DNA of 64,000 nt, from assembly GCA_022703585.1 (NCBI GenBank), contig JAKLDJ010000001.1:54891-118890 (forward strand), in the 5' to 3' direction. Below are positions 21,274 to 51,424 of the stretch, piece after piece; the first letter of the stretch is position 1; the number at the start of each line of letters is the position of its first letter. Source of the stretch: Candidatus Omnitrophota bacterium (lineage in GTDB: Bacteria; Omnitrophota; Gorgyraeia; Zapsychrales; JAKLDJ01). The notes beneath the pieces are model-generated. The model did no database searches. It was not told where the DNA came from and worked only from the letters and a program-made list of their open reading frames with translations. The position numbers were made by a program, and so were the translations under genes.

Positions 21274-24213
21274 TTAGCGTGACGGCAATGGATCATTATT
21301 TACCGTTGTTAACAATACCCGCGCATCCACAGCGGGCAAGATCAAATTCTGAATTGTTGCCCCGGAATTCGCCACATGATCCTGGACGCCATTGATCAAT
21401 CTAAATTCCTGGCCCAAATCAATGGTAGCCGGCGGCGTGCCGTAATAATTGTTATTCAAAATAACGATCCCGTGCTGAAAATCCCGCCGCCAGATATTCG
21501 GCTGCACCTGATAGGGCTCGCCTACCGGATCGCCGAGATAGCCCCTGCCGATACTGCCATTCGTGGTCGGAACCCCGGCCTGCCAGTCAACCCAGAACTC
21601 ATCATACCAGAGCATGTGCCTGTACCCGATAGCCCCGTCGGTAGGAGTAGGCATATGATAGACACCCCCTAGCAGGCTGGCAACCAAACCGTAGCGAGAA
21701 TAACGATAATTAGCCTGATTTGTGAGAAATATATTCCAGTTCATGTGTGGCGTTTTACTATGCATTTGCCAGTACAAAAAACTATTATCGTTGCTTGGAT
21801 TTAAGAACGTGTCTAAATTCCAAACACCATTACGATGAAGCATAGACTCCCACATCTTTCCGTTATAGAGACCGTGGTGCATATCTGCATTATTACCGAC
21901 GACTAAAACATCCTGCCCCAATTTAGCCCTCGTTAATTCCATTAATCTTTGCAGGCCGTTGCCCCACAGAGACCTGACCTCGGCAAAAACGCCAGAGTCA
22001 TTGAGATCTTCATCGACCCCGTCTAAATCATAATCCATAGGCTGGGTAAATGTATGATGGGCATAATCATATAAGAACCAGAAGGTGGTGTCCGGCCCAT
22101 CATAGCCAATACCATCCCAATCCCCTTTGGCAATCGCATTTTTTTCCAAGTGATCCGTCAATGCTTCCGAAAAGGGTACGGCGGGATTAAGGTTATAATT
22201 CAACTGATTCGGGTAATACAGGTTAATGGCGTATTCCCCCGCGACATTGTGCAAACGCCAGCTGTCTTGCAACTGTTCCGCCAAATCCGCACTCGCGATG
22301 TCGCTGACACCATAAAGCGTATTGGATAACGCATACTGGTACATCACCAATAAGATATTGGGATTGGCCTCCCTAATCTGACGCAAGACCAAAGACCGGT
22401 TAAGATTATTATTGCTCGGCAATACGTAGTCATACCGGGCAATATCGCTGGCTTCCGTCGGAGCTATGACGTTACCCGTGAAATATAAAGCAAGTTTCGG
22501 ATAATTATTATTGACCGGGGGCAAAACACGTAAACGACGATACCAAGCATAATCATCGCCATTGTCACTGGCTCGGCATTTGATATAAAAATCATAGGAA
22601 GGAATCGTACTCCCGACCGGCTGTTGGATCGTGTGCGTAAAGCCATCGCTCGTCCGGACCTTTCGGGGTAAATGCGCGTAGACATCGGCCTCGCTGCCAT
22701 AGGCACAATGCATCGAGGATTCCGTGGTAAAACTAAGCTCGATACTATCTGTGTTCGCAATCACATAGCCATCGGGTCTCGTGACATTTATCTTGGGCCT
22801 CTGGACCAAAGCCCCATCCTCAAAAACCCTCGCATTCCTAGTAACCGCCACCTCAAGAACATCCCCCGCACTCTTTGGGCCGGCATAATAGAGATCATTC
22901 GGAGAAAACGGAACCCCTCGGATATAGTTCTCCCTGATCTCCTCACTGCTGAGTGCCTTGTTCAGGATCCTGAATTCATCCACCACGGCATTCGCATTAC
23001 CGATGACCAGATTGCCGTTCGCCGGGGCAAAATTAAAATCGTTAAAATGATTCTGGGAGATCTTAAAACCGTTTAGATAAAGACTGGACTTGTTCTCAGT
23101 CTTGGAATACGTCATGGACAGCAGCATAGGTTTATTGATCGGCACATTGTTATGCATCGTATTGATCTGGACAGCACCCCCCCAGGTCGGATCCACAAAA
23201 CCTTTGTGAACCGTAAATAAAAGGATCCCTTCGGCCGTTTTGATATTCATCATAAACAATTCGCCGGTTACCGGGTTTCGATACCGAAATATGTAAGGAT
23301 CACCCGTATTGGCATCATAAACACTGCTGGTGAGAGGCTGTCTGAGAGTTAGCCAAAGTTCAACCGTCCCTTCATCAAAATCTAAATTATCGTTAACGGC
23401 ATACTGGGCCTTGCCGCTCATGCCCGTTCCAAATTTTCCCGGCTCAAAATTAATATTCTCCGCTGCCACCTCGCACTCGCCGTCAGCCGTGTTCAAATTG
23501 CCGTCAAAATGAGCCAAAAATGTGGTAGAGGTTGTACCCGATTCGACCGGAACGCCGTTTAACCTCCATTCATAAGGAACTCCTGCGGGCAGAAAAGTCT
23601 GCGCGAGCACGATTTTATCTTCATAGGGTTTCTGAAGCGCTAAGATGAGAGTAGACATGATACCGCCTGGAATCACGACAGGTTCTACCGTTGGTTCTAG
23701 GGGTAAATCGTCAACGGATCCAAGATTGAGAGACGTAAGATCGGGTGTTTCTTCGAATATGGGGTCGCCGGAGGGTATTGGTTCGGCATTAACAGTTATC
23801 GGTTCTGCATCGATAGGCGCTGGTTGGACATCAACAGGTATTGGGTCTATGTCGAGAAGAGGAGCAACGTACGGCTGGCTTATGCCGTCAGAATAATCTT
23901 TTGCATCACCCGTATAAATTTTTTCTTCCGCAGAAGAAACCAGATCATGGCTTTGGGAATTCGGCGATCCGGACGCAAAATTGCCTGCAAAAGAACCGTC
24001 CCGGCGAGCGCCGTTGACAAACCCATAGTTATAACTCCTGCGGAGAAACGATTCCGAAGACGATGATTTGTGTGACTTTAAATGACGCGACTTGACTAAT
24101 TCGGAGCCCCCATTCTGAGCAAAAGTATTATCTTGCAATACAGTCAAAATAAAGACGGCGGTGAGACCCAAACCGAAACGCAGAAAATGATGGAATGTAT
24201 AATATCTTTTCAT
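21274..24213 (-). CDS. Large secreted protein (979 aa) with a LamG/concanavalin-like domain and a C-terminal glycoside-hydrolase-like domain (family uncertain)
   Basis: Signal peptide. LamG-like block (GTVELWL...VDEFRILNKALSSEEI). Trp/Tyr/Asp-rich C-terminal region typical of carbohydrate-active TIM-barrel folds. RBS AGGAGGG. Confidence 0.65.
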   Translation of the reverse strand: MKRYYTFHHFLRFGLGLTAVFILTVLQDNTFAQNGGSELVKSRHLKSHKSSSSESFLRRSYNYGFVNGARRDGSFAGNFASGSPNSQSHDLVSSAEEKIYTGDAKDYSDGISQPYVAPLLDIDPIPVDVQPAPIDAEPITVNAEPIPSGDPIFEETPDLTSLNLGSVDDLPLEPTVEPVVIPGGIMSTLILALQKPYEDKIVLAQTFLPAGVPYEWRLNGVPVESGTTSTTFLAHFDGNLNTADGECEVAAENINFEPGKFGTGMSGKAQYAVNDNLDFDEGTVELWLTLRQPLTSSVYDANTGDPYIFRYRNPVTGELFMMNIKTAEGILLFTVHKGFVDPTWGGAVQINTMHNNVPINKPMLLSMTYSKTENKSSLYLNGFKISQNHFNDFNFAPANGNLVIGNANAVVDEFRILNKALSSEEIRENYIRGVPFSPNDLYYAGPKSAGDVLEVAVTRNARVFEDGALVQRPKINVTRPDGYVIANTDSIELSFTTESSMHCAYGSEADVYAHLPRKVRTSDGFTHTIQQPVGSTIPSYDFYIKCRASDNGDDYAWYRRLRVLPPVNNNYPKLALYFTGNVIAPTEASDIARYDYVLPSNNNLNRSLVLRQIREANPNILLVMYQYALSNTLYGVSDIASADLAEQLQDSWRLHNVAGEYAINLYYPNQLNYNLNPAVPFSEALTDHLEKNAIAKGDWDGIGYDGPDTTFWFLYDYAHHTFTQPMDYDLDGVDEDLNDSGVFAEVRSLWGNGLQRLMELTRAKLGQDVLVVGNNADMHHGLYNGKMWESMLHRNGVWNLDTFLNPSNDNSFLYWQMHSKTPHMNWNIFLTNQANYRYSRYGLVASLLGGVYHMPTPTDGAIGYRHMLWYDEFWVDWQAGVPTTNGSIGRGYLGDPVGEPYQVQPNIWRRDFQHGIVILNNNYYGTPPATIDLGQEFRLINGVQDHVANSGATIQNLILPAVDARVLLTTVNNDPLPSR

Positions 24214-24390: not shown

Positions 24391-24765
24391 TATCGTCAAA
24401 ACATGATTTCTTTAATTATCTATTTAAAAGTATAGCACTGATTTAGGGGGAAACAAGGCAGGGAGACATGCTACCGGGAAGCGTTTTCCTGGAGAGATCA
24501 TCTTTGAATATTTAACCTTCGATGACAAGCGTCAAGAGTCAAGATTACACCTGAAAACACAGAGCAATAAATTGAATTATTTTAAGTTACTGCTGGATAG
24601 ATAGCAAAGACCTCGCAATCGGGCTGAAAAAACAATCCGATCAATTCGGAACATCTGACCCCTATTACTGATAAAGATTCTCCGCTAACAACAAGGGAAC
24701 AGCCGGGAAGGTTACGGCAGGAAATTATTTTGTTCCTAAGGCTGACGCGAATGAATTCTGCGCCG

Positions 24766-27178: not shown

Positions 27179-27243
27179 TCGGGGAGCCGGGATTTGAACC
27201 CGGGACCTCTTGCTCCCAAAGCAAGCACGCTAGCCAACTGCAC
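27179..27243 (-). pseudogene. Partial tRNA-Pro(TGG) copy (D-arm through 3' end) lacking a matching 5' acceptor strand
   Basis: The 3' ~65 nt fold well: anticodon loop ttTGGga, T-loop ttcaaat, acceptor 3' ctccccg. The required 5' cggggag is absent, replaced by a 50-nt hairpin (gcacctgactt...aagtcaggtgc). Confidence 0.5.
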
Positions 27244-27446
27244 CTGACTTCCTCTAAACTTAAAGAACTTCTATTGAGAAAAGTCAGGTGCTGCCCCAAC
27301 TTTCCACTAATCCTGTTTAGAAGAAGTTGGGACTGCACCGGCTTCTTCTAAAATAGAATCTTAAGGATGGCCGGGCTGCACTTGTTTCTTCTGAACGTAG
27401 ATCTTTTTATTCTAAGGAAAACAAGTGCTGCACCATCCTAAAAAAG

Positions 27447-27521
27447 TCGGGGCGGACAGATTTGAACTGTCGACCTTCTGCTCCCAAAGCAGACGCGCTA
27501 GCCAAGCTGCGCTACGCCCCG
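27447..27521 (-). tRNA. tRNA-Pro (TGG)
   Basis: Acceptor cggggcg/cgccccg, D-arm gcgcagcttggctagcgc, anticodon loop ttTGGga, T-arm gacagttcaaatctgtc. No encoded CCA. Confidence 0.85.
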
Positions 27522-41813: not shown

Positions 41814-42044
41814 TCAACCTTGTCCGCCTAGCTGCCCAGCGACTTTTTTAAGCGAAAACCCTTGCAAGCGCATTTCCTTGATTCGATTGAGCGTCTGTAT
41901 AGTTGAATCATCAAAGTAACGGAAATTGGTCTCCGGTCCCCGGCCTATTTCTTTAAATAAGCCGAGCTTGAGGTAATATTTGAGCGTGTGTGTTGAGTAG
42001 CCGCTTACCCTGGATAGATCTTTCAGAAGGTATATATTTGTCAT
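41814..42044 (-). CDS. Small MerR-family HTH transcriptional regulator (76 aa)
   Basis: IYLLKDLSRVSGYSTHTLKYYLKLGL, the MerR-type HTH. Confidence 0.6.
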   Translation of the reverse strand: MTNIYLLKDLSRVSGYSTHTLKYYLKLGLFKEIGRGPETNFRYFDDSTIQTLNRIKEMRLQGFSLKKVAGQLGGQG

Positions 42045-42175: not shown

Positions 42176-42712
42176 TTAGGAAGGAATGAGTATCTTGCTT
42201 AGGGTCAGGCGGCACTTAATTTGGGCCGTGCGTATAGAGCTTTTTTCGAAATAGACTTCGTCTATGCTAAAGAAATGGGGAGAATTTTGCAGGATATACA
42301 GAAAATGGACAATCGAAACCAGCTCGCCATCCATGGTCAGGCTCACCGAGAAATTATTATAGAAATCTACTCTTTTAACCTTTTTGGGTTTCATGTCGGC
42401 CACGCCCAGCTTGATTTCATTGGCAACCGACTGTATCTCGGAAAGGATCGATGCCATCTCCTGCTCATCAGAAAGTTTTTGCCGCAAAGAAAAAATCTGC
42501 TGTTCATATGCCTTGCTGACACTGTCCTTCCTCTTATTAATCTTCAAAATCTTCTTTAGCTGAGTCTCCTTGGCTTCGATTTTCTCTTCTAGGGCAGCCA
42601 AGTCTTCCTTAAGCGGCTTAAAAATAAACCGATAGCTGACAAAAACAAAGATAACAAACAGGCAAACAATAAAAATGCGCGTTTCTCTTTTGGAAAGGCG
42701 TCGTGGAATCAT
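42176..42712 (-). CDS. PilO/GspM-like pilus assembly protein
   Basis: N-terminal TM, coiled coil (LAALEEKIEAKETQLKKIL), C-terminal ferredoxin-like region. 4-bp overlap with upstream gene. Confidence 0.5.
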   Translation of the reverse strand: MIPRRLSKRETRIFIVCLFVIFVFVSYRFIFKPLKEDLAALEEKIEAKETQLKKILKINKRKDSVSKAYEQQIFSLRQKLSDEQEMASILSEIQSVANEIKLGVADMKPKKVKRVDFYNNFSVSLTMDGELVSIVHFLYILQNSPHFFSIDEVYFEKSSIRTAQIKCRLTLSKILIPS

Positions 42713-44223
42713 GGCGTTTCTTCCTTTGCCTTGACAAGATGACAGGTGATCTTAAAATCTGTCAGCTCGCCTTTAAAAATCTTCCTTTTAGTGGCATATT
42801 GCAAAGTTACGTTTCCAAACAGAGAAGAATTAACCAGCCGCCTCTGCAGGGCATTAACACCACTACCGGTTTCGGAGGTACCCTGAAGGTCAAGCGTTCC
42901 GTCTTCTCCCAGGTGCACCATGCTGAAAGAAATCTCCGCCGGTGCCAGATTATATAATTCATAAATAATATCAATACCGGTCGCAACGGGATTAAATCGT
43001 TCTTTGATAAAATTAAGACGCCTTACCTTTTCCTTTACCTCGCGGACAGCCGGCTCTGCCTCGCTGATTTTTCCCTGGAGTTGCTGAAGATACATGGAAT
43101 TCTTATAAATTTTAACCGCGATCGTACCCATGAACAGAAGAACGACTCCGACCAGAAGAATAATGAGCCTGGACCATTCCTGCCTTCTTTTCCTGTTTTC
43201 CCTGGTGCTGCTGACTTCTGAGGGAATCAGATTAACGAGGCCTTCGGGTTTTTCTAAGACCAGCCCCAGCCCCACCGCCAGCGACACACCGGCCTGCTCC
43301 AAGGCAATCGGTTTTTTAAAACTCTTTTTTTGCGGAATATTTGTTAGCGGGTTAAGTGTTTCGGGATTAACCGCATACAGACGCCGCCCTCTTTCGGCCT
43401 CGGTATTATCCCCGGACTCAGCGCCGGAAGCCAAAGCCTTATTCTCCGCTTCCATCCTTTCGCGTAAAATTGCGATCTGTGAGAGCGAAGAGACCAGAAG
43501 CCCCCGGGAAATATTTTCTCCGATATTTTCCTTAACGTAAGTAGCCACAGTGAGGTTGATCTCTTCGATGAGGTTGGCAATGCCTGCCTCGTTTAAATCC
43601 CTAGCCCCGAAATTAATACTCCGGGAAAATAATAGTTTTCGATTATGACAAAAACAAATTTCCGTATTCAGCGTATCAACATTGATAACCACGGCGGGAG
43701 AGGTATCTTTCTGCCTTAACCGCGACTGCTGAAAGACAAACCAACGCATCAACCCCACCGAACTTAAAGTCAGCCGTTGGATCGGCAGGCCGGCATCATT
43801 AAAGATCTTTAAATACCTGCCGACTACTTCCTTGTGGATCGCGAAGACCAGGACCTTGGAATAACCCGTCGATTCTTTGGCTAAAACGGCATGGTCGAGG
43901 ATAACGTCCTCCCGGGGATACGGCACCTGCTTGATAATCTGCAGGTTGATCATCTTTCTTATTTCTTCATCCGCATGAGAAGGAAGCGTCAGATGCCGGA
44001 GAATGGCAAAACGCCTGGGGATAATACCGATAAGATTTGAGGCGCGGACCTTGCCATTAGCAGCCATCACAGCGATCGTCCTAGAAACTTCAGCGTCGGA
44101 ATACTGCACAATTTCCCTAACGTCACAATAGGTCAAAACCGCGCCGCCGTGAGACACCATTGCCTGCACAAGCTTGATATGGGTATCCGTAATTTCAACG
44201 CTGGTTAAAAGATTTTTTCCCAT
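42709..44223 (-). CDS. Fused PilM (actin-like ATPase) - PilN pilus assembly protein
   Basis: N-terminal PilM-like ~350 aa, internal TM (LIILLVGVVLLFMGTIAV), C-terminal PilN-like segment. Confidence 0.7.
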   Translation of the reverse strand: MGKNLLTSVEITDTHIKLVQAMVSHGGAVLTYCDVREIVQYSDAEVSRTIAVMAANGKVRASNLIGIIPRRFAILRHLTLPSHADEEIRKMINLQIIKQVPYPREDVILDHAVLAKESTGYSKVLVFAIHKEVVGRYLKIFNDAGLPIQRLTLSSVGLMRWFVFQQSRLRQKDTSPAVVINVDTLNTEICFCHNRKLLFSRSINFGARDLNEAGIANLIEEINLTVATYVKENIGENISRGLLVSSLSQIAILRERMEAENKALASGAESGDNTEAERGRRLYAVNPETLNPLTNIPQKKSFKKPIALEQAGVSLAVGLGLVLEKPEGLVNLIPSEVSSTRENRKRRQEWSRLIILLVGVVLLFMGTIAVKIYKNSMYLQQLQGKISEAEPAVREVKEKVRRLNFIKERFNPVATGIDIIYELYNLAPAEISFSMVHLGEDGTLDLQGTSETGSGVNALQRRLVNSSLFGNVTLQYATKRKIFKGELTDFKITCHLVKAKEETP

Positions 44224-44227
44224 CAGT

Positions 44228-45304
44228 CTATTCTTTCTGCCAGAAAACTATTGATAAATCATTCCTGTCAATAACAGCTTCCAAGACAGAATCAATCCCC
44301 AGGCCCTCATCTTTACCTACCGCACGGACACGCAAATAATTGGAGACATCGGTTACACTACCTGACAATGAAAGGAATATCGCCATTTCTTTTTGATTAA
44401 GGCCTAATTCATTCGCGATAATCTTCCGGTCATCCGAGGTGTATTCTTGGCCGTCTTCTCCTCGCCGGTAAGAAATAATCTTAGCTGCCATGCTGTCGGC
44501 ATCGGACAACTCCGTGTTGGTCTGAAACCCTGCCTTACTGCGCGCCAATGCCCGGATAACAATTTCGGGAGCCGTATTCATATTAATCATCAATCGCGAA
44601 TCATCCTGAGGAAAAACCGTCACGTAATTCTTAACTTTTGAATATATCTCCGGAGTCATCCCCTTAAGCAAGAGAAGTTCCTCCGGACTTTCAAAAAAGA
44701 AATTCTTGCATCGATAAGAATACTCGGATTCTTCGGTCGCGGACGGCGCATTAGTCGCGGCGGCATCGCTATCCCGCCAGTCGACGGCGGCCATGGCGAT
44801 TGTTTCAGCCAGGACATCCTCAAACCCCAGAACAGAAATCAAAGAGCTCAAAACATTATAATTCTGCCGCGACAGGGCATTGATATTAATTCTGCCTTCT
44901 TCATCCCGCAGGCCGTAATGGGTTTTTTTTAGACCCGTCAGCGGGTCTTGAGTAACAAAGCTGACGTCAAAACGGCCATCGCCCAACCGGACTTCCTTAA
45001 AGATATCTTCCGGCACCTGCCCTTCCTCTAATGTGATACCACAAAGATACGCGGTGTCGAGGCCGGCCGCGGCACTATCCTCGCTGTCCTTTTTAATCTG
45101 GTCAATCGCGTACATCAAACCCGCCCAGGCAAGGTTTGAGGCCCTGGATTGGCCGACGGCAAATTTTGTCAAAGCCAAGTCAATACTGGTCCGCCGTCCC
45201 AGGCCGACCGCCAGAAAAGACAGAATAACCATCATCCATAATACAACCAGAAGTATTATACCAGAATCATTCCTCGTTCTAAATCTCGGTAAACAATATT
45301 TCAT
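44228..45304 (-). CDS. Minor pseudopilin GspK-like
   Basis: N-terminal SGIILLVVLWMMVILSFLAV hydrophobic segment typical of GspK. 358 aa. Confidence 0.6.
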   Translation of the reverse strand: MKYCLPRFRTRNDSGIILLVVLWMMVILSFLAVGLGRRTSIDLALTKFAVGQSRASNLAWAGLMYAIDQIKKDSEDSAAAGLDTAYLCGITLEEGQVPEDIFKEVRLGDGRFDVSFVTQDPLTGLKKTHYGLRDEEGRININALSRQNYNVLSSLISVLGFEDVLAETIAMAAVDWRDSDAAATNAPSATEESEYSYRCKNFFFESPEELLLLKGMTPEIYSKVKNYVTVFPQDDSRLMINMNTAPEIVIRALARSKAGFQTNTELSDADSMAAKIISYRRGEDGQEYTSDDRKIIANELGLNQKEMAIFLSLSGSVTDVSNYLRVRAVGKDEGLGIDSVLEAVIDRNDLSIVFWQKE

Positions 45305-45307
45305 ATC

Positions 45308-46030
45308 TTAAAGATTTTCTTCCGTTAGGTATCCTGACGGAATATAAACATCTTTAGTAAAAACGATAGGCTGCTTTACCTTGCCCGGTTTTATGAAGGT
45401 CGCTTTGATCCGCACCCCCGAAGGAGTGTACGGCTTTTCCCACGAATCCTTCCAGGTAATCTTCTCGTCTTCCTCCTGCCCTTCGAGGTAAGCAAAAGAA
45501 AAACTTAAACTCCCCTCTTGAATATGAGGGCTTAAAATATCCTTTTCGACTTTTGCCTGCGCATTATCGGTTAAGTAATCGGTAAACAGTTTTTCTTCGC
45601 GGACCAGTGAATACAAAACAAATTTTTCCTCGTAGCGAACGGTCAAGGAACGGTTTTTGTTCGTGTGGCCGCCGATAACAACTTTGTGCACCGTCGTCTG
45701 GTCGGGTAATTCAAGATAATAGCTGATAACCTTAAGGCCCGTATCCGTTGCGGATACGAAGGAAATTTTATCCGAATTTCCGGAGAATGCGGTTAGCTTA
45801 GGGTAAGAATTGGCAAAATTAAAAGCGCGCATGCGCTCTAAATCTCCCGCTATCTGATCCAGGGCCCAGCGAGCCTCGCGGTAAATGCCGTTGACATCAT
45901 CCGACCGGCGGCTTAATCGTAGCGCGCTATCCAACGTCCCATACAGGCTTACGGCAATGATAGAAAAAATGCTCAAACCCAGAAGCACTTCGATCAGCGT
46001 GAAGCCTTTAAAAGAATATTTTGATCGCAT
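45308..46030 (-). CDS. Minor pseudopilin GspJ-like (prepilin-type N-terminus)
   Basis: Likely start MRSKYSFKG|FTLIEVLLGLSIF, a class III signal with Gly-1 and Glu+5. Confidence 0.6.
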   Translation of the reverse strand: MRSKYSFKGFTLIEVLLGLSIFSIIAVSLYGTLDSALRLSRRSDDVNGIYREARWALDQIAGDLERMRAFNFANSYPKLTAFSGNSDKISFVSATDTGLKVISYYLELPDQTTVHKVVIGGHTNKNRSLTVRYEEKFVLYSLVREEKLFTDYLTDNAQAKVEKDILSPHIQEGSLSFSFAYLEGQEEDEKITWKDSWEKPYTPSGVRIKATFIKPGKVKQPIVFTKDVYIPSGYLTEENL

Positions 46031-46074
46031 ACGTATTTCTTTCCAGGACGGTTTGCCGTTTTTCGACCACATTT

Positions 46075-46485
46075 CTATGCCGGCGGCTGAAGAAGATAGG
46101 TCACCGCAGAAATAGACCGCTCCTTGGGGCCCGAACGCCAAAAGACAGTCAATTTAACCTCATTCAACAATCCTGACGTCGATTCGCTAACGACTTTCTT
46201 TGTTTCCAATCGATAGAAAAACTTTTCATACGGCTCGGGAAAAATATCCTCTATATCAATAGAATCTTTGATAAAACCTTTTTGTCTTAAATCGGACATT
46301 TCATTTCCTAATAAAATCACGGCCATGGAGTAATCGGCGCTATACGCCGTCGCCTTCAGGCTGGACACCAGGGAGCGGATAACAACCGTCAACCCGATCG
46401 AAAGGATAGAAATCGTCAGCAAGGCCTCGACTAAAAGCGAGCCTTTTTTACTCAATTTTGCCTTCAAATATTTGAACATAGCCAA
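46075..46485 (-). CDS. Minor pseudopilin GspI-like
   Basis: KKGSLLVEALLTISILSIGL prepilin-type N-terminus. Confidence 0.6.
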   Translation of the reverse strand: MAMFKYLKAKLSKKGSLLVEALLTISILSIGLTVVIRSLVSSLKATAYSADYSMAVILLGNEMSDLRQKGFIKDSIDIEDIFPEPYEKFFYRLETKKVVSESTSGLLNEVKLTVFWRSGPKERSISAVTYLLQPPA

Positions 46486-47080
46486 ATTGGTCCTGGGTTG
46501 AAACGGTAAAATAGCTATCGCGATTATCGCGCAGGTAGAGCCGAACCTTTTCTATCTTCCCGTCGGGATAAAATAGGATAGCCGGCTTATCTGCTTCCAT
46601 CTTAATCCCTTCAGGGATAGAGAGCGGCTGCCCCATCTTCCCTGAGATCGGCTGAAAGCTAACCTCCTCATCCCCTTGGTCCGAGCCAAGATCTACTTCC
46701 TGCGTCAGCCGGCATTGATTGTGCACAGCGTCAAGCTCAAGGCGATGCAGATTTTTTTTGACAATGGCCCTTCCTTGGGCATACCGCATCAAGAAGGCAA
46801 CGTTCTTTGTCGCCTCCGATAGCTGAAGATTAGAATAAAGCTGACTGAAATTGGGAACGGCGAGACCGGCAACGACGCCTAAGAGTAAAACCACCAGCAG
46901 GATTTCGACAAGAGTAAACCCGGTTAGAAAACTTCGTTCTTCTACCCTGTTAGAAAACGAATCTTTTCTAATGAGGCTAAAATCGGCGGCTTTCTCCAAC
47001 GGGGTAAATGATTTGTGATGAGCAAGGCAATGGAAAGCTCCGGGAGAGATTCGTCTTTGGATATTTCCTTCTTTTTTCAT
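46448..47080 (-). CDS. Minor pseudopilin GspH-like with unusually long N-terminal leader
   Basis: ATG at 47080 forms an ATGA overlap with the gspG stop. Prepilin motif G|FTLVEILLVVLLLG follows a ~58-aa leader. No in-frame ATG closer to the motif. Confidence 0.5.
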   Translation of the reverse strand: MKKEGNIQRRISPGAFHCLAHHKSFTPLEKAADFSLIRKDSFSNRVEERSFLTGFTLVEILLVVLLLGVVAGLAVPNFSQLYSNLQLSEATKNVAFLMRYAQGRAIVKKNLHRLELDAVHNQCRLTQEVDLGSDQGDEEVSFQPISGKMGQPLSIPEGIKMEADKPAILFYPDGKIEKVRLYLRDNRDSYFTVSTQDQFGYVQIFEGKIE

Positions 47081-47529
47081 TGCCCATCCGGCGTTTTGGC
47101 CTCTTCCCAATTTGTGACATCGTCTCCTGCGCCCTCTGCACCATCCCGGCCGTAAGAAGACAGGTCATACGATTCGACATTATGGCTGCCCGGGGAGATA
47201 TACGCATAATCCTTACCCCACGGATCCTTGGGAATTCTTTTTTTCTTTAAATACGGGCCACTCCAGTTTTCCGGAACAGGCGAGGCGGTAGGTGCCTCAA
47301 CTAAGGCTGCCAGCCCCTGCTCCGTGGTCGGATAGCGGCCGTTGTCCAATTCGTATAAATCCAGCGCCGTCCCTAAATTGGTTTCAATATCGGCCTTAGC
47401 GGCCATGCGCCTGGCTTGTTCCCCCCGGCCGGCTAAGTTCGGGACAACCATCGCCACCAAAACACCGATAATAATAACGACAAGCATGATTTCAACCAGC
47501 GTAAAACCTTTTATTTGCTTGGTCTTCAT
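47077..47529 (-). CDS. gspG: Type II secretion major pseudopilin GspG
   Basis: MKTKQIKG|FTLVEIMLVVIIIGVLVAMVVPNL, the GspG signature. 150 aa. Confidence 0.85.
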   Translation of the reverse strand: MKTKQIKGFTLVEIMLVVIIIGVLVAMVVPNLAGRGEQARRMAAKADIETNLGTALDLYELDNGRYPTTEQGLAALVEAPTASPVPENWSGPYLKKKRIPKDPWGKDYAYISPGSHNVESYDLSSYGRDGAEGAGDDVTNWEEAKTPDGQ

Positions 47530-47566
47530 TGACTGACCTCCTTAAAAGTTATTAGAATTCCCAATC

Positions 47567-48826
47567 CTATCGTATCATGAGATTCATCTTAAAGATCGGC
47601 AGCAGCATGGCAACCACGATAAAGGCCACAACCGAGCCGACCACGATAATCATCACCGGCTCCAGAAGAGAAGTCACCGTCTTAACCATCCGGTCGGATT
47701 CCCTTTCATAAGCATCGGCGATCTTGTATAAGGCCTGCTCCAGGTGCCCGGATTCCTCCCCTACCATCACCATATTAACGGCTGTTTCGGGAAAATATTT
47801 ACATTTCTTAAGCGCCGCTGTCAGGCTGTCGCCGCCGGCAACGTCTGCCGACAGCTTCTTGACTTCTCCTTTTAAGGCCTCGTTATCCAGAACCGCCCAG
47901 ACCGAATCCAAAGCCGAGACAATGACCACCCCGCCGTCTAAAAGGGTCCCCAGGCTTCTGGCTAAACGTCCCATTTCCGAATCCCTTATAAAACTTCCCA
48001 CCAAGGGAATCTTTAATTTAAGAGTATCCCATTTTAATTTGCCTGAAGGTGAACTGCAAAATCTTTTAAAATAAAAAAACAGCAGGTAGGCAAGGCCAAA
48101 GACCAGCCACCAAAAACGGCTTAGGAAATTACTGACCGCCATCAAAATAAGAGTCAGTAACGGCAGCGTCTCGGATAGGTCTTCAAACATCACCGTGATG
48201 CGAGGAATGACAAAGGTCAGTAAAACAAAAATCGTAATAACACCCACAATAAAAATAAGAGCCGGGTAAGCTAAGCTGGAACGTATTTTGCTTCGTGTCT
48301 CGAGGTCTTTCTCGGAAAAATCCGCCAGGCGATTCAAGACGGTATCCAGGTTGCCGCTGATTTCCCCGGCACGAACCATGTTCACGTACAACGGCGAAAA
48401 AACCTGCGGATGCCGGCTTAGGGCCTGAGAAAATGTACCGCCGTCCTGCACGAAGGTTTCTATCTGATGAATCATTTCCTTAAAATGAGGATTTTTCCCT
48501 TGATTCGATATGATGCGTAGTGCCCTCAGCAGAGGCACGCCCGCCCCCACCAGATCGGCGACCTGCCGGGTAAACAATCCGACCTCCGCAGGGTTAACAA
48601 AACTGTGAAAACTCAAGAAGGCGAAAGAAGGCAGTTTGGGCTTAGGGGGAAGTTTTACTTCTTTGGCAGTCGCAAGCGAAATATCAATCGGAACGTATCC
48701 GAGTTTTGTTATTTTATCGAGGGCGCTGTCCAGATTTTCTGCCTCGATAGTACCGTCGAGAATATCGACGGGGCCTTTCTTGGCCTTATAAATAAAAAGG
48801 GGCATATTTGATGGTGATTTTAACAC
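47567..48826 (-). CDS. gspF: Type II secretion / type IV pilus platform protein (GspF/PilC family)
   Basis: Two T2SSF repeats and three TM segments. 419 aa. Confidence 0.9.
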   Translation of the reverse strand: MLKSPSNMPLFIYKAKKGPVDILDGTIEAENLDSALDKITKLGYVPIDISLATAKEVKLPPKPKLPSFAFLSFHSFVNPAEVGLFTRQVADLVGAGVPLLRALRIISNQGKNPHFKEMIHQIETFVQDGGTFSQALSRHPQVFSPLYVNMVRAGEISGNLDTVLNRLADFSEKDLETRSKIRSSLAYPALIFIVGVITIFVLLTFVIPRITVMFEDLSETLPLLTLILMAVSNFLSRFWWLVFGLAYLLFFYFKRFCSSPSGKLKWDTLKLKIPLVGSFIRDSEMGRLARSLGTLLDGGVVIVSALDSVWAVLDNEALKGEVKKLSADVAGGDSLTAALKKCKYFPETAVNMVMVGEESGHLEQALYKIADAYERESDRMVKTVTSLLEPVMIIVVGSVVAFIVVAMLLPIFKMNLMIR

Positions 48827-48970
48827 ACCCCCGAACCTATTTCAAGGCAAAGCTACGGATGATGCATGAGAATAGAGTTAAAACAATGATTTGCGTAAGA
48901 ATAACTTTGGGTGATTTTAAGAAGAGGCCTCGAGGGACATTCAAATCATACCACTGGAGGGAAATTGTTT

Positions 48971-49324
48971 TTATTTGTAGGCGATTGTCTTTTTGACATA
49001 CTGCGAAGACTGGAGCACAAAAACTTTATCGCCCAGAACAACATACTGGCTGCCAACAACCTTGTAGAGAACTTTGTCTTTGCGCTGGCGGGTGTTTCGG
49101 TTACGGATAATAAAAGTCTGGGGAGGGGCGCCTTCCTTTTTCTTCTGATTAAGGAAAAGCTCCAGGTCAAAGGGATCAGTAAACTCCAGGATTTCTTTAA
49201 CCGCATAGACGGTCTTTTTCTCGAGCTCCTGGACCGCACCCGTATTCTCCATAAGCTCTGAAGAAAAAAGCTCTGTCCTTTTTTTGTCCTTAGAAACACT
49301 GTTGCGGAATAACAATTCGTGCAT
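48971..49324 (-). CDS. Hypothetical 117-aa protein, first gene downstream of the riboswitch
   Basis: GGAGGA RBS 5 nt before ATG. No recognised domain. Confidence 0.5.
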   Translation of the reverse strand: MHELLFRNSVSKDKKRTELFSSELMENTGAVQELEKKTVYAVKEILEFTDPFDLELFLNQKKKEGAPPQTFIIRNRNTRQRKDKVLYKVVGSQYVVLGDKVFVLQSSQYVKKTIAYK

Positions 49325-49341
49325 ATCTTCCTCCGCTCAAT

Positions 49342-49492
49342 AAAAAAACCTATCCGCAAAAATACTTAAGGATAGGTTTTAAAAACCCTGCGCCTAGATT
49401 CGGCAGCCAGACTGTCCCACACCCGGCTGGTGAGGTGTGGGATTCTTAGCTTTGCGTCCTATCCTTACGAATAGTTTGCCTTTTCGTCTAAC
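49342..49492 (-). promoter_or_regulatory. c-di-GMP-I (GEMM) type riboswitch aptamer plus intrinsic terminator
   Basis: Sense strand: ...gacgaaaaGGCAAACtattcGTAAggataGGACGCAAAGCtaag...cccacacc/ggtgtggg hairpin...ctggctgccgaatc. Matches the GEMM consensus (GCAAAC, GNRA loop, GGACGCAAAGC). Followed by cctatcc...ggatagg hairpin plus T7 and then the RBS. Confidence 0.65.
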
Positions 49493-49650
49493 TAAAATCG
49501 TACGAAAGAGCTTCTGTCTTAGCTACACTCTAAATATAACACTTATATAGTCATAAACAAGGGGTTGGAGGCGGTTTTGGGAAAGCGGTTTCTTTGAAGG
49601 GCAATTTTTGTACATTTTGGCTCAAGCGAAGGAGTGTTTTTGGAAAGAAA

Positions 49651-49694
49651 GAAAATCAAAGGGCGGCCCCCGCACGCCGCGCGGGGGCCGCCCC
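49651..49694 (-). terminator. Rho-independent terminator after gspE
   Basis: 13-bp GC stem gggcggcccccgc/gcgggggccgccc with T-rich tail on the minus strand. Confidence 0.65.
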
Positions 49695-49723
49695 TATTTA
49701 GCTTTATTGAAAAATCCCCTAAC

Positions 49724-51424
49724 CTATACCGCCTCTTCCTGAGTTACCCGCATAACCTCGCCGGGTGTGGTAATTCCATTCTTTATTTTTTCCCAGCCGT
49801 CCTGGCGTAATGTCCTCATTCCTGCCTGGATGGCCTTATTCTTGATTTGCTGGGCCGTGGCACGATTTAGAATCATATCTCGGATCTCTTCATTTAAGAC
49901 CAGAAATTCATAAATCCCCTCACGGCCCCGATACCCTGTAAATTTACAAGCCTCACACCCTTTGCCTTCATAAAATACAATTTGAGAAACTTCTTGTTCG
50001 TTAAGCCCAAAGTCTTTGGCCATATCAACCGCTGCCTTGACAGGCTGTTTGCATCGCGGGCATATAATACGCACTAGTCTCTGAGCGATAAAACATTCCA
50101 CCGAACTCGAGACAAGATACGGCTCCACCCCCATATCGATAAGCCTCACCACACCGCTGGCGGCATCGTTGGTATGCAGTGTCGAAAAAACCAGATGCCC
50201 GGTCAGGGCAACTTGAATAGCGATCTCTGCCGTTTCAAAATCCCTGACCTCTCCCACCATCATGATGTCGGGATCGTGCCGCAGCATGGAGCGCAATCCG
50301 GCTGCAAAAGTAAGGCCGATACGCGGGTTAATTTGAATTTGCGTTACCCCGCCTAACTGATATTCAATGGGGTCTTCAATGGTAATGATCTTCCGGTCGA
50401 CTTTATTTACCCGTGAAAGACAGGCATACAGTGTCGTCGTCTTACCGCTGCCGGTAGGGCCGGTAACAAAAACGACTCCGTGTGGTTTCTTAATAAGCAT
50501 ATCAAGAATATTCAAATCACGCCTGGACAATCCCAGCTCTTCAAAGCTGTAAAGCTTTGCGGCGCTTAGAATCCTGATTACCACGCTCTCGCCGTAAACC
50601 GTAGGAAGAAAGGAGATCCTTAAATCAAGATCAATATCCCCGACTCTAACCTTAAAACGTCCGTCCTGGGGAAGGCGTTTCTCAGCGATGTTTAAGTTCG
50701 CCATAATTTTAATGCGCGAATTAATTGAATCCTTAAAATGCTTAATCGTGGGCGGGACTTTAGCATCATATAAAATACCGTCAATCCGGTAGCGGATTTT
50801 TAATTCGTCCTCAAAAGGCTCAATATGAATATCCGTTGCCCTGTCTTTGTAAGCCTCTAGGAGGATCTGGTTGACAAATTTACCGATGGAAGCCTCGGAA
50901 TCTATTTCCTCAATATCCTCGACGCGCATCTCCTCTTTTGTGCGCACCCCCACCGTATCCATCATCTTCTCAATTGTTTCGGCTCCAACCCCATAGTATT
51001 TGCGCACGGCCTCCATGATATCTTTTTCGCTGGCCAAAACGGACTTGAGTCTTGATTTAACCACCAAACCGATATCATCCAGGACATGGATATCCAGCGG
51101 CCTGGTTAAAGCGACGGTCAAGGTTTCATTTTTGTAGTCAATGGGCATAATGCGATAATGATAGGCAAATTTGGCAGGGATTTTATTGATAGCCTCGGGG
51201 GGCACACGGACTTCCTTAAGATTGACAAACTCAACACCCAGCTGCTCCGCCAGGATCGGCAGATAGACCGTCTCTTCGTTTACAAGCCCCAGACGCAACA
51301 GCGTAATCCCCAGCATCTCTCCGGTCTTCTGCTGTTCTTTAAGGGCGGTTTGCAATTGCTGCTCGGTAATAACTTTCTTATCAACCAACAATTGGCCTAA
51401 GAAACTTTTGGATTTCGTTTTCAT
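49724..51424 (-). CDS. gspE: Type II secretion / type IV pilus assembly ATPase (GspE/PilB family)
   Basis: N-terminal T2SSE_N domain, Walker A GPTGSGKTTT, Asp/His boxes, C-terminal tetracysteine CPRC...CEAC. Confidence 0.9.
   Translation of the reverse strand: MKTKSKSFLGQLLVDKKVITEQQLQTALKEQQKTGEMLGITLLRLGLVNEETVYLPILAEQLGVEFVNLKEVRVPPEAINKIPAKFAYHYRIMPIDYKNETLTVALTRPLDIHVLDDIGLVVKSRLKSVLASEKDIMEAVRKYYGVGAETIEKMMDTVGVRTKEEMRVEDIEEIDSEASIGKFVNQILLEAYKDRATDIHIEPFEDELKIRYRIDGILYDAKVPPTIKHFKDSINSRIKIMANLNIAEKRLPQDGRFKVRVGDIDLDLRISFLPTVYGESVVIRILSAAKLYSFEELGLSRRDLNILDMLIKKPHGVVFVTGPTGSGKTTTLYACLSRVNKVDRKIITIEDPIEYQLGGVTQIQINPRIGLTFAAGLRSMLRHDPDIMMVGEVRDFETAEIAIQVALTGHLVFSTLHTNDAASGVVRLIDMGVEPYLVSSSVECFIAQRLVRIICPRCKQPVKAAVDMAKDFGLNEQEVSQIVFYEGKGCEACKFTGYRGREGIYEFLVLNEEIRDMILNRATAQQIKNKAIQAGMRTLRQDGWEKIKNGITTPGEVMRVTQEEAV

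Follow-up and report, generated by a model that had tools for sequence, protein, structure and literature searches.

A predicted c-di-GMP-I riboswitch in the leader of the platform and pseudopilin genes of a type II secretion-like cluster in Candidatus Omnitrophota

The GEMM, or cyclic di-GMP-I (c-di-GMP-I), class of riboswitches has been known since 2007-2008. One member, Cd1 of Clostridioides difficile, reportedly lies upstream of the flagellar flgB operon and is said to turn it off by premature termination (so Sudarsan et al. 2008), and in the same species a riboswitch of the c-di-GMP-II class upstream of pilA1 acts as an ON switch for type IV pili. Here we describe an element of the first class in a 64,000-nucleotide stretch of DNA (the window) from a Candidatus Omnitrophota metagenome-assembled genome (MAG), where it stands ahead of the platform and pseudopilin genes of a cluster resembling a type II secretion system (T2SS). 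Such surroundings are familiar, as pulF (= gspF), pilM, pilO and pilQ are among the recurrent GEMM-associated gene families (PMC1950547, Table 2).

The locus can be compared with each of these systems. With Cd1 it has in common a class-I aptamer, a separate intrinsic terminator and a predicted ligand-promoted termination of a large operon for a surface apparatus, whereas its genes are those of T2SS-like platform and pseudopilin proteins rather than flagella, and its predicted antiterminator uses P2 and the tetraloop. With the pilA1 riboswitch it shares a type IV filament cluster under c-di-GMP control, but the aptamer class differs and the predicted sign is opposite. With the GEMM elements before pilus and pulF-type genes in Geobacter and others (PMC1950547) it shares the downstream families (pulF = gspF, pilM and pilO); many of those instances are ON switches with a terminator that overlaps the aptamer and several sense cyclic GMP-AMP (cGAMP), in contrast to the G at position 20 and the non-overlapping terminator of the window. 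The finding is thus that of a known riboswitch class, ahead of gene families already listed for GEMM, in a new host, and is ordinary in kind. A literature search found no paper linking Omnitrophota with a riboswitch of this kind. We consider it likely that the locus as a whole is explained by a canonical GEMM-I riboswitch in the independently promoted leader of the platform and pseudopilin transcript, which would be turned off by termination.

Window coordinates are used throughout, and the riboswitch and its operon are on the minus strand. With gathering thresholds, Rfam cmscan run on all 64 kb of the window returned a match to the c-di-GMP-I clan at 49489-49398 (60.5 bits, E 8.3e-12, full model 1-80), the best-scoring model being RF03167, named "c-di-GMP-I-GGC". 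The aptamer is a genuine observation, well beyond chance. An earlier note, made from the letters alone, had proposed a GEMM aptamer from a set of motifs, a hairpin and a tail, all of which are present on the minus strand as it quoted them: GGCAAAC-TATTC-GTAA-GGATA-GGACGCAAAGC spans 49480-49449, the CCCACACC/GGTGTGGG hairpin 49440-49416, and the tail CTGGCTGCCGAATC 49410-49397. Its proposal was borne out by the covariance match, under the RF03167 label, and by a helix-by-helix check, in which the sequence threads onto the GEMM architecture with canonical, covarying P1, P2 and P3. Read from the sequence, the core is AAAAGGCAAAC-UAUUC-GUAA-GGAUA-GGACGCAAAGC (49484-49449), followed by a 10-bp hairpin (UCCCACACCU/GGGUGUGGGA) and then the tail CUGGCUGCCGAAUC.

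P1 of the aptamer is formed by UUAGA/UCUAG and CG/CG, P2 by GC, CUAUUC-GUAA-GGAUAG and GC with a GAC bulge, and P3 by AGCU-A-AGA-(10-bp hairpin)-AG-UCU-GGCU. The first hairpin follows the GEMM pattern GC / AAA / CUAUUC-GUAA-GGAUAG / GAC / GC, and then AAA. The motif has been defined by 2-bp and 6-bp stems, a 3-nt internal loop, a GNRA loop and an AAA linker (PMC1950547), and the window aptamer has a 2-bp and 6-bp P2, a 3-nt internal loop, a GUAA loop and the AAA linker. Among GEMM elements a subtype with a GYRA loop and no tetraloop receptor has been described, the receptor being usually absent where the loop is GYRA (PMC1950547). Accordingly, the window aptamer differs from RF01051/Vc2 in its GUAA (GYRA-type) tetraloop, in lacking the 11-nt tetraloop receptor, in its long (10 bp) distal P3 hairpin and in its Candidatus Omnitrophota host; in common with RF01051/Vc2 are the two hairpins closed by P1, the core AAAGGCAAAC ... 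GACGCAAAGC ... GCUGCCGAA, the equivalents of G20, A47, C92 and C44-G83, the GNRA loop of the first hairpin and the position in a 5' leader. Folding against shuffled sequences gave z -2.8 for the aptamer and z -3.8 for the whole leader, both below the shuffles. We regard the element as almost certainly a c-di-GMP-I-type aptamer, with the following parts.

49394-49491, minus strand: c-di-GMP-I aptamer (Rfam match and helix-by-helix check, with covariation against three other aptamers)
49480, minus strand: G equivalent to Vc2 G20 (alignment to the Rfam consensus)
49453, minus strand: A equivalent to Vc2 A47, a G in the RF03167 consensus
49403, minus strand: C equivalent to Vc2 C92 (alignment to the Rfam consensus)

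Covariation was read from four aptamers, namely that of the window, those of two other Omnitrophota species (loci L005 and L013) and a second riboswitch in the window. At least eight base pairs in P1, P2 and P3 are altered on both sides, and nearly all pairs are canonical; for example, P2 appears as CUAUUC/GGAUAG, CCCGUC/GGCGGG, CUCGUC/GACGAG and CUGUCC/GGGCGG. P1 and P3a/b/c are canonical except for four pairs, one each in the window, L005 and L013, and an A-C at the foot of the distal hairpin in the window. In L005 (to which L006 and L007 are identical) the aptamer precedes the orthologous gene and scores 63.1 bits with RF03167. L013 has it at the same place before the orthologous gene, with an Rfam score of 28.7 bits, which is low because an insertion misled the alignment; read by hand, the core is intact. 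This insertion, of about 52 nt (L013 1186-1239), carries two hairpins of 11 and 10 bp and separates the GAC-type bulge from the 3' strand of the 2-bp P2 stem. A GEMM aptamer would not usually be interrupted at this point; the nucleotides of the binding site are retained.

The Rfam label bears on the identity of the ligand. The aptamer might be a specificity variant, either an RF03167 "GGC" member with another ligand or a GEMM-Ib cGAMP sensor, and RF03167 does top the Rfam scores in the window and in L005, barely over the gathering score (in the window 60.5 against 59 bits, or +1.5 bits), while the window flanks (ACGAAAAGGCAAAC ... GCUGCCGAA) closely fit its consensus. A lower-scoring match of the same clan at the site was suppressed by Rfam clan competition, the RF01051 score (gathering 35 bits) not being displayed, and a search trimmed of P1 (49403-49483) again put RF03167 on top, at 48.4 bits. 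The GGC variant is said to have been defined in Weinberg et al. 2017 PNAS. We deduced the meaning of "GGC" from the two consensus lines, which differ at one binding-pocket position, GACGCAAAgCc in RF01051 against GACGCGAAgCc in RF03167; in Vc2 numbering this is A47. An A, not the G that defines RF03167, is found there in the window, in L005 and in L013, and because position 47 is A (49453) we read the aptamer as canonical rather than as a GGC variant. RF03167 is the best-scoring covariance model and shares with the window aptamer P1 with its flanking sequences and the want of a receptor stem, whereas the binding-site signature of the window is "GAC" and not "GGC".

The other contacts point the same way. 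G20, A47 and C92 are the three ligand-contacting residues of Vc2, G20 contacting G-alpha of the ligand (PMC4744006, PMC5888326) and C92 forming a Watson-Crick pair with G-beta (PMC5888326), and the interhelical C44-G83 pair has a described role and is universally conserved (PMC4744006, PMC5888326). Equivalents of this pair are present as C49456, in the GAC bulge, and G49412, in the AG bulge. An A at position 20 is typical of GEMM-Ib cGAMP sensors (PMC9481103); the window has G49480, which disfavours the cGAMP alternative that the earlier note had raised. Since the contact triplet is the canonical G20/A47/C92, the sequence argues for c-di-GMP rather than cGAMP, and c-di-GMP is very probably the ligand. 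It has been reported that the clan's models pick out one and the same set of sequences (PMC9943018), and RF03167 likely outscores the others since it models P1 and omits the receptor-bearing inner stem, which suits an aptamer with a GUAA loop. We consider a specificity variant highly improbable. Rfam clan competition can tag a canonical aptamer as a specificity variant, and therefore the binding-site nucleotides should be read before a ligand is inferred.

Downstream of this canonical aptamer is an intrinsic terminator, which a simple terminator scan with a loop limit of 8 nt misses on account of its longer loop; RNA folding was used instead. Its parts are CCTATCC (49376-49370), GGATAGG (49355-49349) and T7 (49348-49342), and it starts 14 nt past the end of the aptamer (P1, 49394), without overlap. 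The features of the expression platform are as follows.

49342-49380, minus strand: intrinsic terminator AAAACCUAUCC-loop-GGAUAGGUUUU running into a U7 tract (RNA folding, 11-bp stem)
49458-49467, minus strand: aptamer segment UAAGGAUAGG (three nt of the GUAA loop and the 3' arm of P2), the predicted 5' strand of the antiterminator (fold of the truncated transcript)
49367-49376, minus strand: CCUAUCCUUA, the 5' arm of the terminator and predicted 3' strand of the antiterminator (folding, shuffles)

Equilibrium minimum-free-energy folding cannot discriminate the states, and for this reason truncated transcripts, shuffles and findpath barriers were used. In a transcript that ends before the 3' arm of the terminator, 49458-49467 pairs with 49376-49368 at a probability of 0.96-0.99, CCUAUCC(UU) with (AA)GGAUAGG. 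Pairing between the terminator 5' arm and the aptamer is found in all four instances (window, L005, L013 and the second riboswitch; truncated transcripts, P 0.8-1.0), and the aptamer segment that serves as partner differs between lineages, being one in the window, another in L005 and L013, and a third in the second window riboswitch. In L005 and L013, for example, GCC-UA-UUUUCG pairs with CGAAAAGGC, which comprises the inner P1 pairs, the A-rich joiner, G20 and the 2-bp stem. Shuffled tails paired this well in 0.3% (window), 4% and 1.7% of cases. As long as the 3' arm is missing, the antiterminator fold is favoured over the enforced aptamer by 7.7-8.8 kcal/mol (window, L005), a gap that the binding energy of c-di-GMP plausibly covers, judging from the affinity of Vc2. 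At full length the antiterminator fold of the window lies 4.0 kcal/mol above the terminator state; there the P2 and terminator stems are near-copies of one another and their partners can swap, and the barrier from free aptamer to antiterminator is 6.3 kcal/mol (findpath estimate).

A mechanism can be proposed on these grounds. When the 5' arm of the terminator (CCUAUCCUUA) is out and the 3' arm is not yet, it would pair with UAAGGAUAGG of a free aptamer, the exposed GUAA loop offering a toehold for the invasion of P2, and at full length the halves of P2 and of the terminator could exchange partners. With the antiterminator formed, RNA polymerase would read through. With c-di-GMP bound, P1, P2, P3 and the docked tetraloop would be locked and the 5' arm left free, so that the terminator would form and transcription would stop ahead of the ribosome-binding site. 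In silico the platform has both a terminator compatible with the bound aptamer and an antiterminator exclusive with both. The folding models make control by transcription termination likely; an OFF switch, in which high c-di-GMP shuts the operon, is favoured because the antiterminator excludes the ligand-bound fold, and on these models we hold this direction to be probable, with some reserve.

The same aptamer and ligand could in principle serve an ON switch, with c-di-GMP blocking the terminator and inducing the secretion-system genes. ON is the commonest terminator design of GEMM-I, described as frequent by Weinberg 2007 (PMC1950547), and it would agree with the activation of MshE-type ATPases by c-di-GMP, as the GspE encoded upstream has an MshEN and c-di-GMP motif match. 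In the common ON design, however, the terminator's 5' side overlaps the aptamer's 3' side (PMC1950547), whereas the terminator of the window stands 14 nt past P1, and in each of the three instances so tested (window, L005, L013) terminator and enforced aptamer fold are compatible. Further, no segment released by the ligand is complementary to either arm of the terminator, and the 5' arm has no strong alternative partner other than the aptamer. In L005 and L013 a hairpin (CGAAUCU/GGAUUCG) competes with the 3' strand of P1, which makes a three-hairpin relay conceivable; ON models including this relay were tried and rejected, as the terminator persists under the enforced aptamer. An ON switch therefore appears unlikely, and the probability left beyond OFF and ON is shared by a relic and some other kind of control.

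Whether the element is decayed can be weighed from the related loci. Six of them (L008-L012 and L014) retain the promoter with a short leader and no riboswitch: the terminator of gspE, a palindrome and the TTGTTT/TATATT promoter are kept (L008 1857-2087, L009-L012, L014 1-42), and a leader of a few tens of nt, with neither aptamer nor terminator, precedes the orthologous small gene. L015, a fourth species, starts right at the homologous terminator (CCUAUUUCUGCUC...GCAGGAAUAGG and U6), and the terminator is kept in four species with compensatory changes. The upstream regions of L018 and L022 are unrelated. That of L022 (1-131, orthologue P0008) has no GEMM aptamer and carries two strong hairpins ahead of the start codon, GGAUUUUGC...GCAAAAUCC and AUUCGUCUUGGCA...UGCCAAGACGAAU, and may be a different regulatory leader. 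Separately, a search of genome and metagenome contig collections for ACGAAAAGGCAAAC-N5-CGTAAG gave two matches, both inside an 852-aa open reading frame (ORF) and with no Rfam match, which we attribute to chance. The distribution among the loci indicates, from sequence comparison, that the riboswitch module was gained or lost as a whole in recent times.

The riboswitch-less loci that keep promoter and palindrome would suit a decayed or ligand-insensitive relic, that is, a constitutive attenuator only, or regulation dominated by the shared promoter and palindrome. The 52-nt insertion inside P2 of L013 would suit it as well, and a characterised c-di-GMP-I riboswitch, Bc1, is unresponsive in vivo (PMC11218506). 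Yet the nucleotides of the ligand and tertiary contacts are all intact, compensatory changes maintain the helices across species whose first-gene proteins are 55-56% identical, and the complementarity between aptamer and terminator is beyond chance. We judge a relic very unlikely.

Several observations count against a functional riboswitch that shuts off the operon by termination. Equilibrium folding gives the terminator with or without the aptamer constraint; the OFF logic would have to be kinetic, because equilibrium folding always favours the terminator. In L005 the antiterminator lies 9.2 kcal/mol above the terminator state with a barrier of about 11.6 kcal/mol, and the antiterminator has to invade a stable GNRA hairpin. 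As noted, the top Rfam model is the RF03167 variant, little above its gathering score and with the RF01051 score masked. Only three independent homologous sequences were retrieved, the other orthologous contigs being too short or lacking DNA. Judged from the sequences, the riboswitch is a dispensable, if conserved, module, with close relatives keeping the promoter without it. A promoter-like site just upstream of gspF, at 48845-48817, could give the genes from gspF on a partial independence from the riboswitch. Lastly, the GspE encoded upstream has an MshEN-type motif, and known systems of this kind are activated by c-di-GMP, a sign opposite to OFF.

The riboswitch is set in the following surroundings, listed in the direction of transcription.

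49724-51424, minus strand: gspE-type secretion ATPase of 566 aa with N-terminal MshEN, in a separate upstream transcription unit (Pfam/NCBIfam)
49659-49695, minus strand: strong intrinsic terminator of the gspE unit (17 bp, 14 of them G-C, T-rich tail; terminator scan)
49581-49592, no strand assigned: palindrome GAAACCGCTTTC, candidate operator, 20 nt upstream of the -35 hexamer
49533-49560, minus strand: predicted promoter TTGTTT-N16-TATATT with an extended -10 TG (49541-49540) and a predicted transcription start near 49526
49329-49334, minus strand: Shine-Dalgarno GGAGGA, 4 nt ahead of the ATG (sequence)
48971-49324, minus strand: 117-aa first gene, of a stand-alone uncharacterised family (ATG at 49324)
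42176-48826, minus strand: gspF, gspG, three prepilin-like ORFs, gspK, a pilM-pilN fusion and pilO/gspM (Pfam/NCBIfam)

The window, L005, L013 and L008 all keep the promoter, TTGTTT-N16-TATAnT with TG, ahead of the leader. With the extended -10 (TTGTTT-N16-TGnTATAnT) it turns up just twice in the 64 kb, where 0.21 matches would be expected, and in each case at a riboswitch leader. At both window riboswitch promoters the -35 is preceded, at a distance of exactly 20 nt, by a palindrome, GAAAnCGnTT(T/C)C, and these are the only two matches in the window with at most one mismatch (GAAAnCGnTTTC); in L013 it is perfect (GAAAACGTTTTC). Promoter and palindrome together occupy 49533-49592 and 24429-24488 (minus strand) in the window, 4918-4976 in L005, 1011-1083 in L013 and 1961-2022 in L008, and are conserved in orthologous loci, even those without the riboswitch. 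Because of this conservation we assign the riboswitch transcript its own promoter. The promoter and palindrome region probably binds a regulator, the palindrome being a candidate operator for a shared transcription factor.

The gap from the stop of gspE (49724) to the ATG of the 117-aa gene (49324) is 399 bp, against the roughly 400 bp of the earlier note, and the order it gave, of aptamer, terminator, GGAGGA ribosome-binding site and 117-aa gene, was recovered from sequence, Rfam and RNA folding together. Its block of gspF, gspG, pseudopilins, gspK, pilMN and pilO was recognised by Pfam and NCBIfam. On the minus strand, FeoB, a 182-aa ORF, GspE (T2SSE and MshEN), the terminator and the promoter precede the riboswitch. 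The 117-aa orphan is followed by GspF, GspG, a GspH-like ORF, a 136-aa ORF, a prepilin-type 277-aa ORF and GspK, then by the PilM-PilN fusion, PilO/GspM and a small MerR-like protein, and then by an ExeA-like AAA ATPase, a GspC-like protein, a secretin and an amidase. The T2SS-like cluster is thus made up of at least two transcription units, the riboswitch heading that of the platform and pseudopilins. The note had platform and pseudopilin genes switched by the riboswitch. As direct control this stands only for the 117-aa gene; from gspF onward, co-transcription with that gene is inferred from the conserved same-strand synteny, the gene order of the gspF block being the same in L005, and from there being no minus-strand terminator between 48971 and 48826.

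The promoter-like site upstream of gspF is TTGAAA-17-TAAAAT with TG (48817-48845, minus strand; 10/12 matches). The gap between the 117-aa gene and gspF measures 144-165 nt in the window and 48-101 nt in relatives, and the start of gspF is ambiguous (GTG 48826 or ATG 48805). The 117-aa protein has no match in Pfam or NCBIfam; its AlphaFold2 model (pLDDT 90) is all-beta plus one helix and has no convincing structural relative. Its family comprises about 96 clusters at 50% identity among 1.8 billion representatives, all of them small stand-alone proteins, with 12 close homologues among 5.8 billion proteins, and the gene lies beside gspF in every relative recovered with known context. A protein of 100% identity to it, annotated as hypothetical, is encoded in a MAG labelled "Candidatus Omnitrophota bacterium", on Mb-scale contigs of several samples.

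The gene of a 76-aa MerR-type helix-turn-helix protein (41814-42044, minus strand) separates pilO/gspM from that of the ExeA-like ATPase; its product might act as a local regulator. A crude regular-expression search for GGDEF, EAL, HD-GYP and PilZ found nothing credible among the window ORFs. Elsewhere in the window, two tRNA-Pro(TGG) genes lie about 200 nt apart (27180-27253 and 27446-27521, minus strand); the first has a partial Rfam tRNA match (37.1 bits, model positions 9-63) and is called at full length by ARAGORN.

GspE itself scores 440 bits with Pfam T2SSE, 67 bits with MshEN and 615 bits with NCBIfam GspE. Its residues 8-61 match both Pfam MshEN and NCBIfam NF053729, "c-di-GMP_motif, MshE-related" (56.9 bits, cut-off 38). 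The published c-di-GMP motif of MshE is RLG...Q (PMC5013675). In GspE both RLG arginines are replaced, giving FLG and MLG (FLGQLLVDKKVI... and MLGITLLRLGLV...), and the second motif is off register by one residue at the final Q. On this sequence evidence GspE may bind c-di-GMP, though this is uncertain; in that event c-di-GMP would act on the ATPase and on the operon with opposite signs.

The second c-di-GMP-I riboswitch of the window (24398-24318, minus strand; RF01051, 55.4 bits) has a leader that extends to the ATG at 24213. Downstream is a 979-aa protein (24213-21274) with an N-terminal hydrophobic segment and GHL15 and Laminin_G_3 (ConA-lectin-like) domains, followed by a 914-aa fn3 protein (21197-18453); both are, from their sequences, plausible secreted cargo. 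In truncated folds the terminator 5' arm of this riboswitch, GGCUUAUUCCUCUUUUU, pairs with the loop and 3' strand of P3, an OFF-type design. A CCCUCC...GGAGGG hairpin in its leader may also sequester the ribosome-binding site. The two riboswitches have the same promoter (TTGTTT-N16-TGnTATAnT), the same palindrome (GAAAnCGnTTyC) and an OFF design, and we tentatively raise the possibility, itself rather doubtful, that they form one small regulon under a transcription factor and c-di-GMP.

The added value of this locus is modest and lies in the host phylum, the predicted OFF logic, the pattern of gain and loss, the shared promoter and palindrome, and the mislabelling by Rfam. Under the OFF model, low c-di-GMP would allow synthesis of the platform, the pseudopilins and the assembly proteins. 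If the regulon is real, the secretion machine and its likely cargo would be switched on together at low c-di-GMP, while the separately transcribed GspE may itself bind c-di-GMP and the riboswitch would have been gained or lost as a module in recent times. The locus offers a concrete, testable handle on c-di-GMP signalling in the uncultivated phylum Omnitrophota, and suggests that the secretion or pseudopilus apparatus is part of a lifestyle switch controlled by a second messenger.

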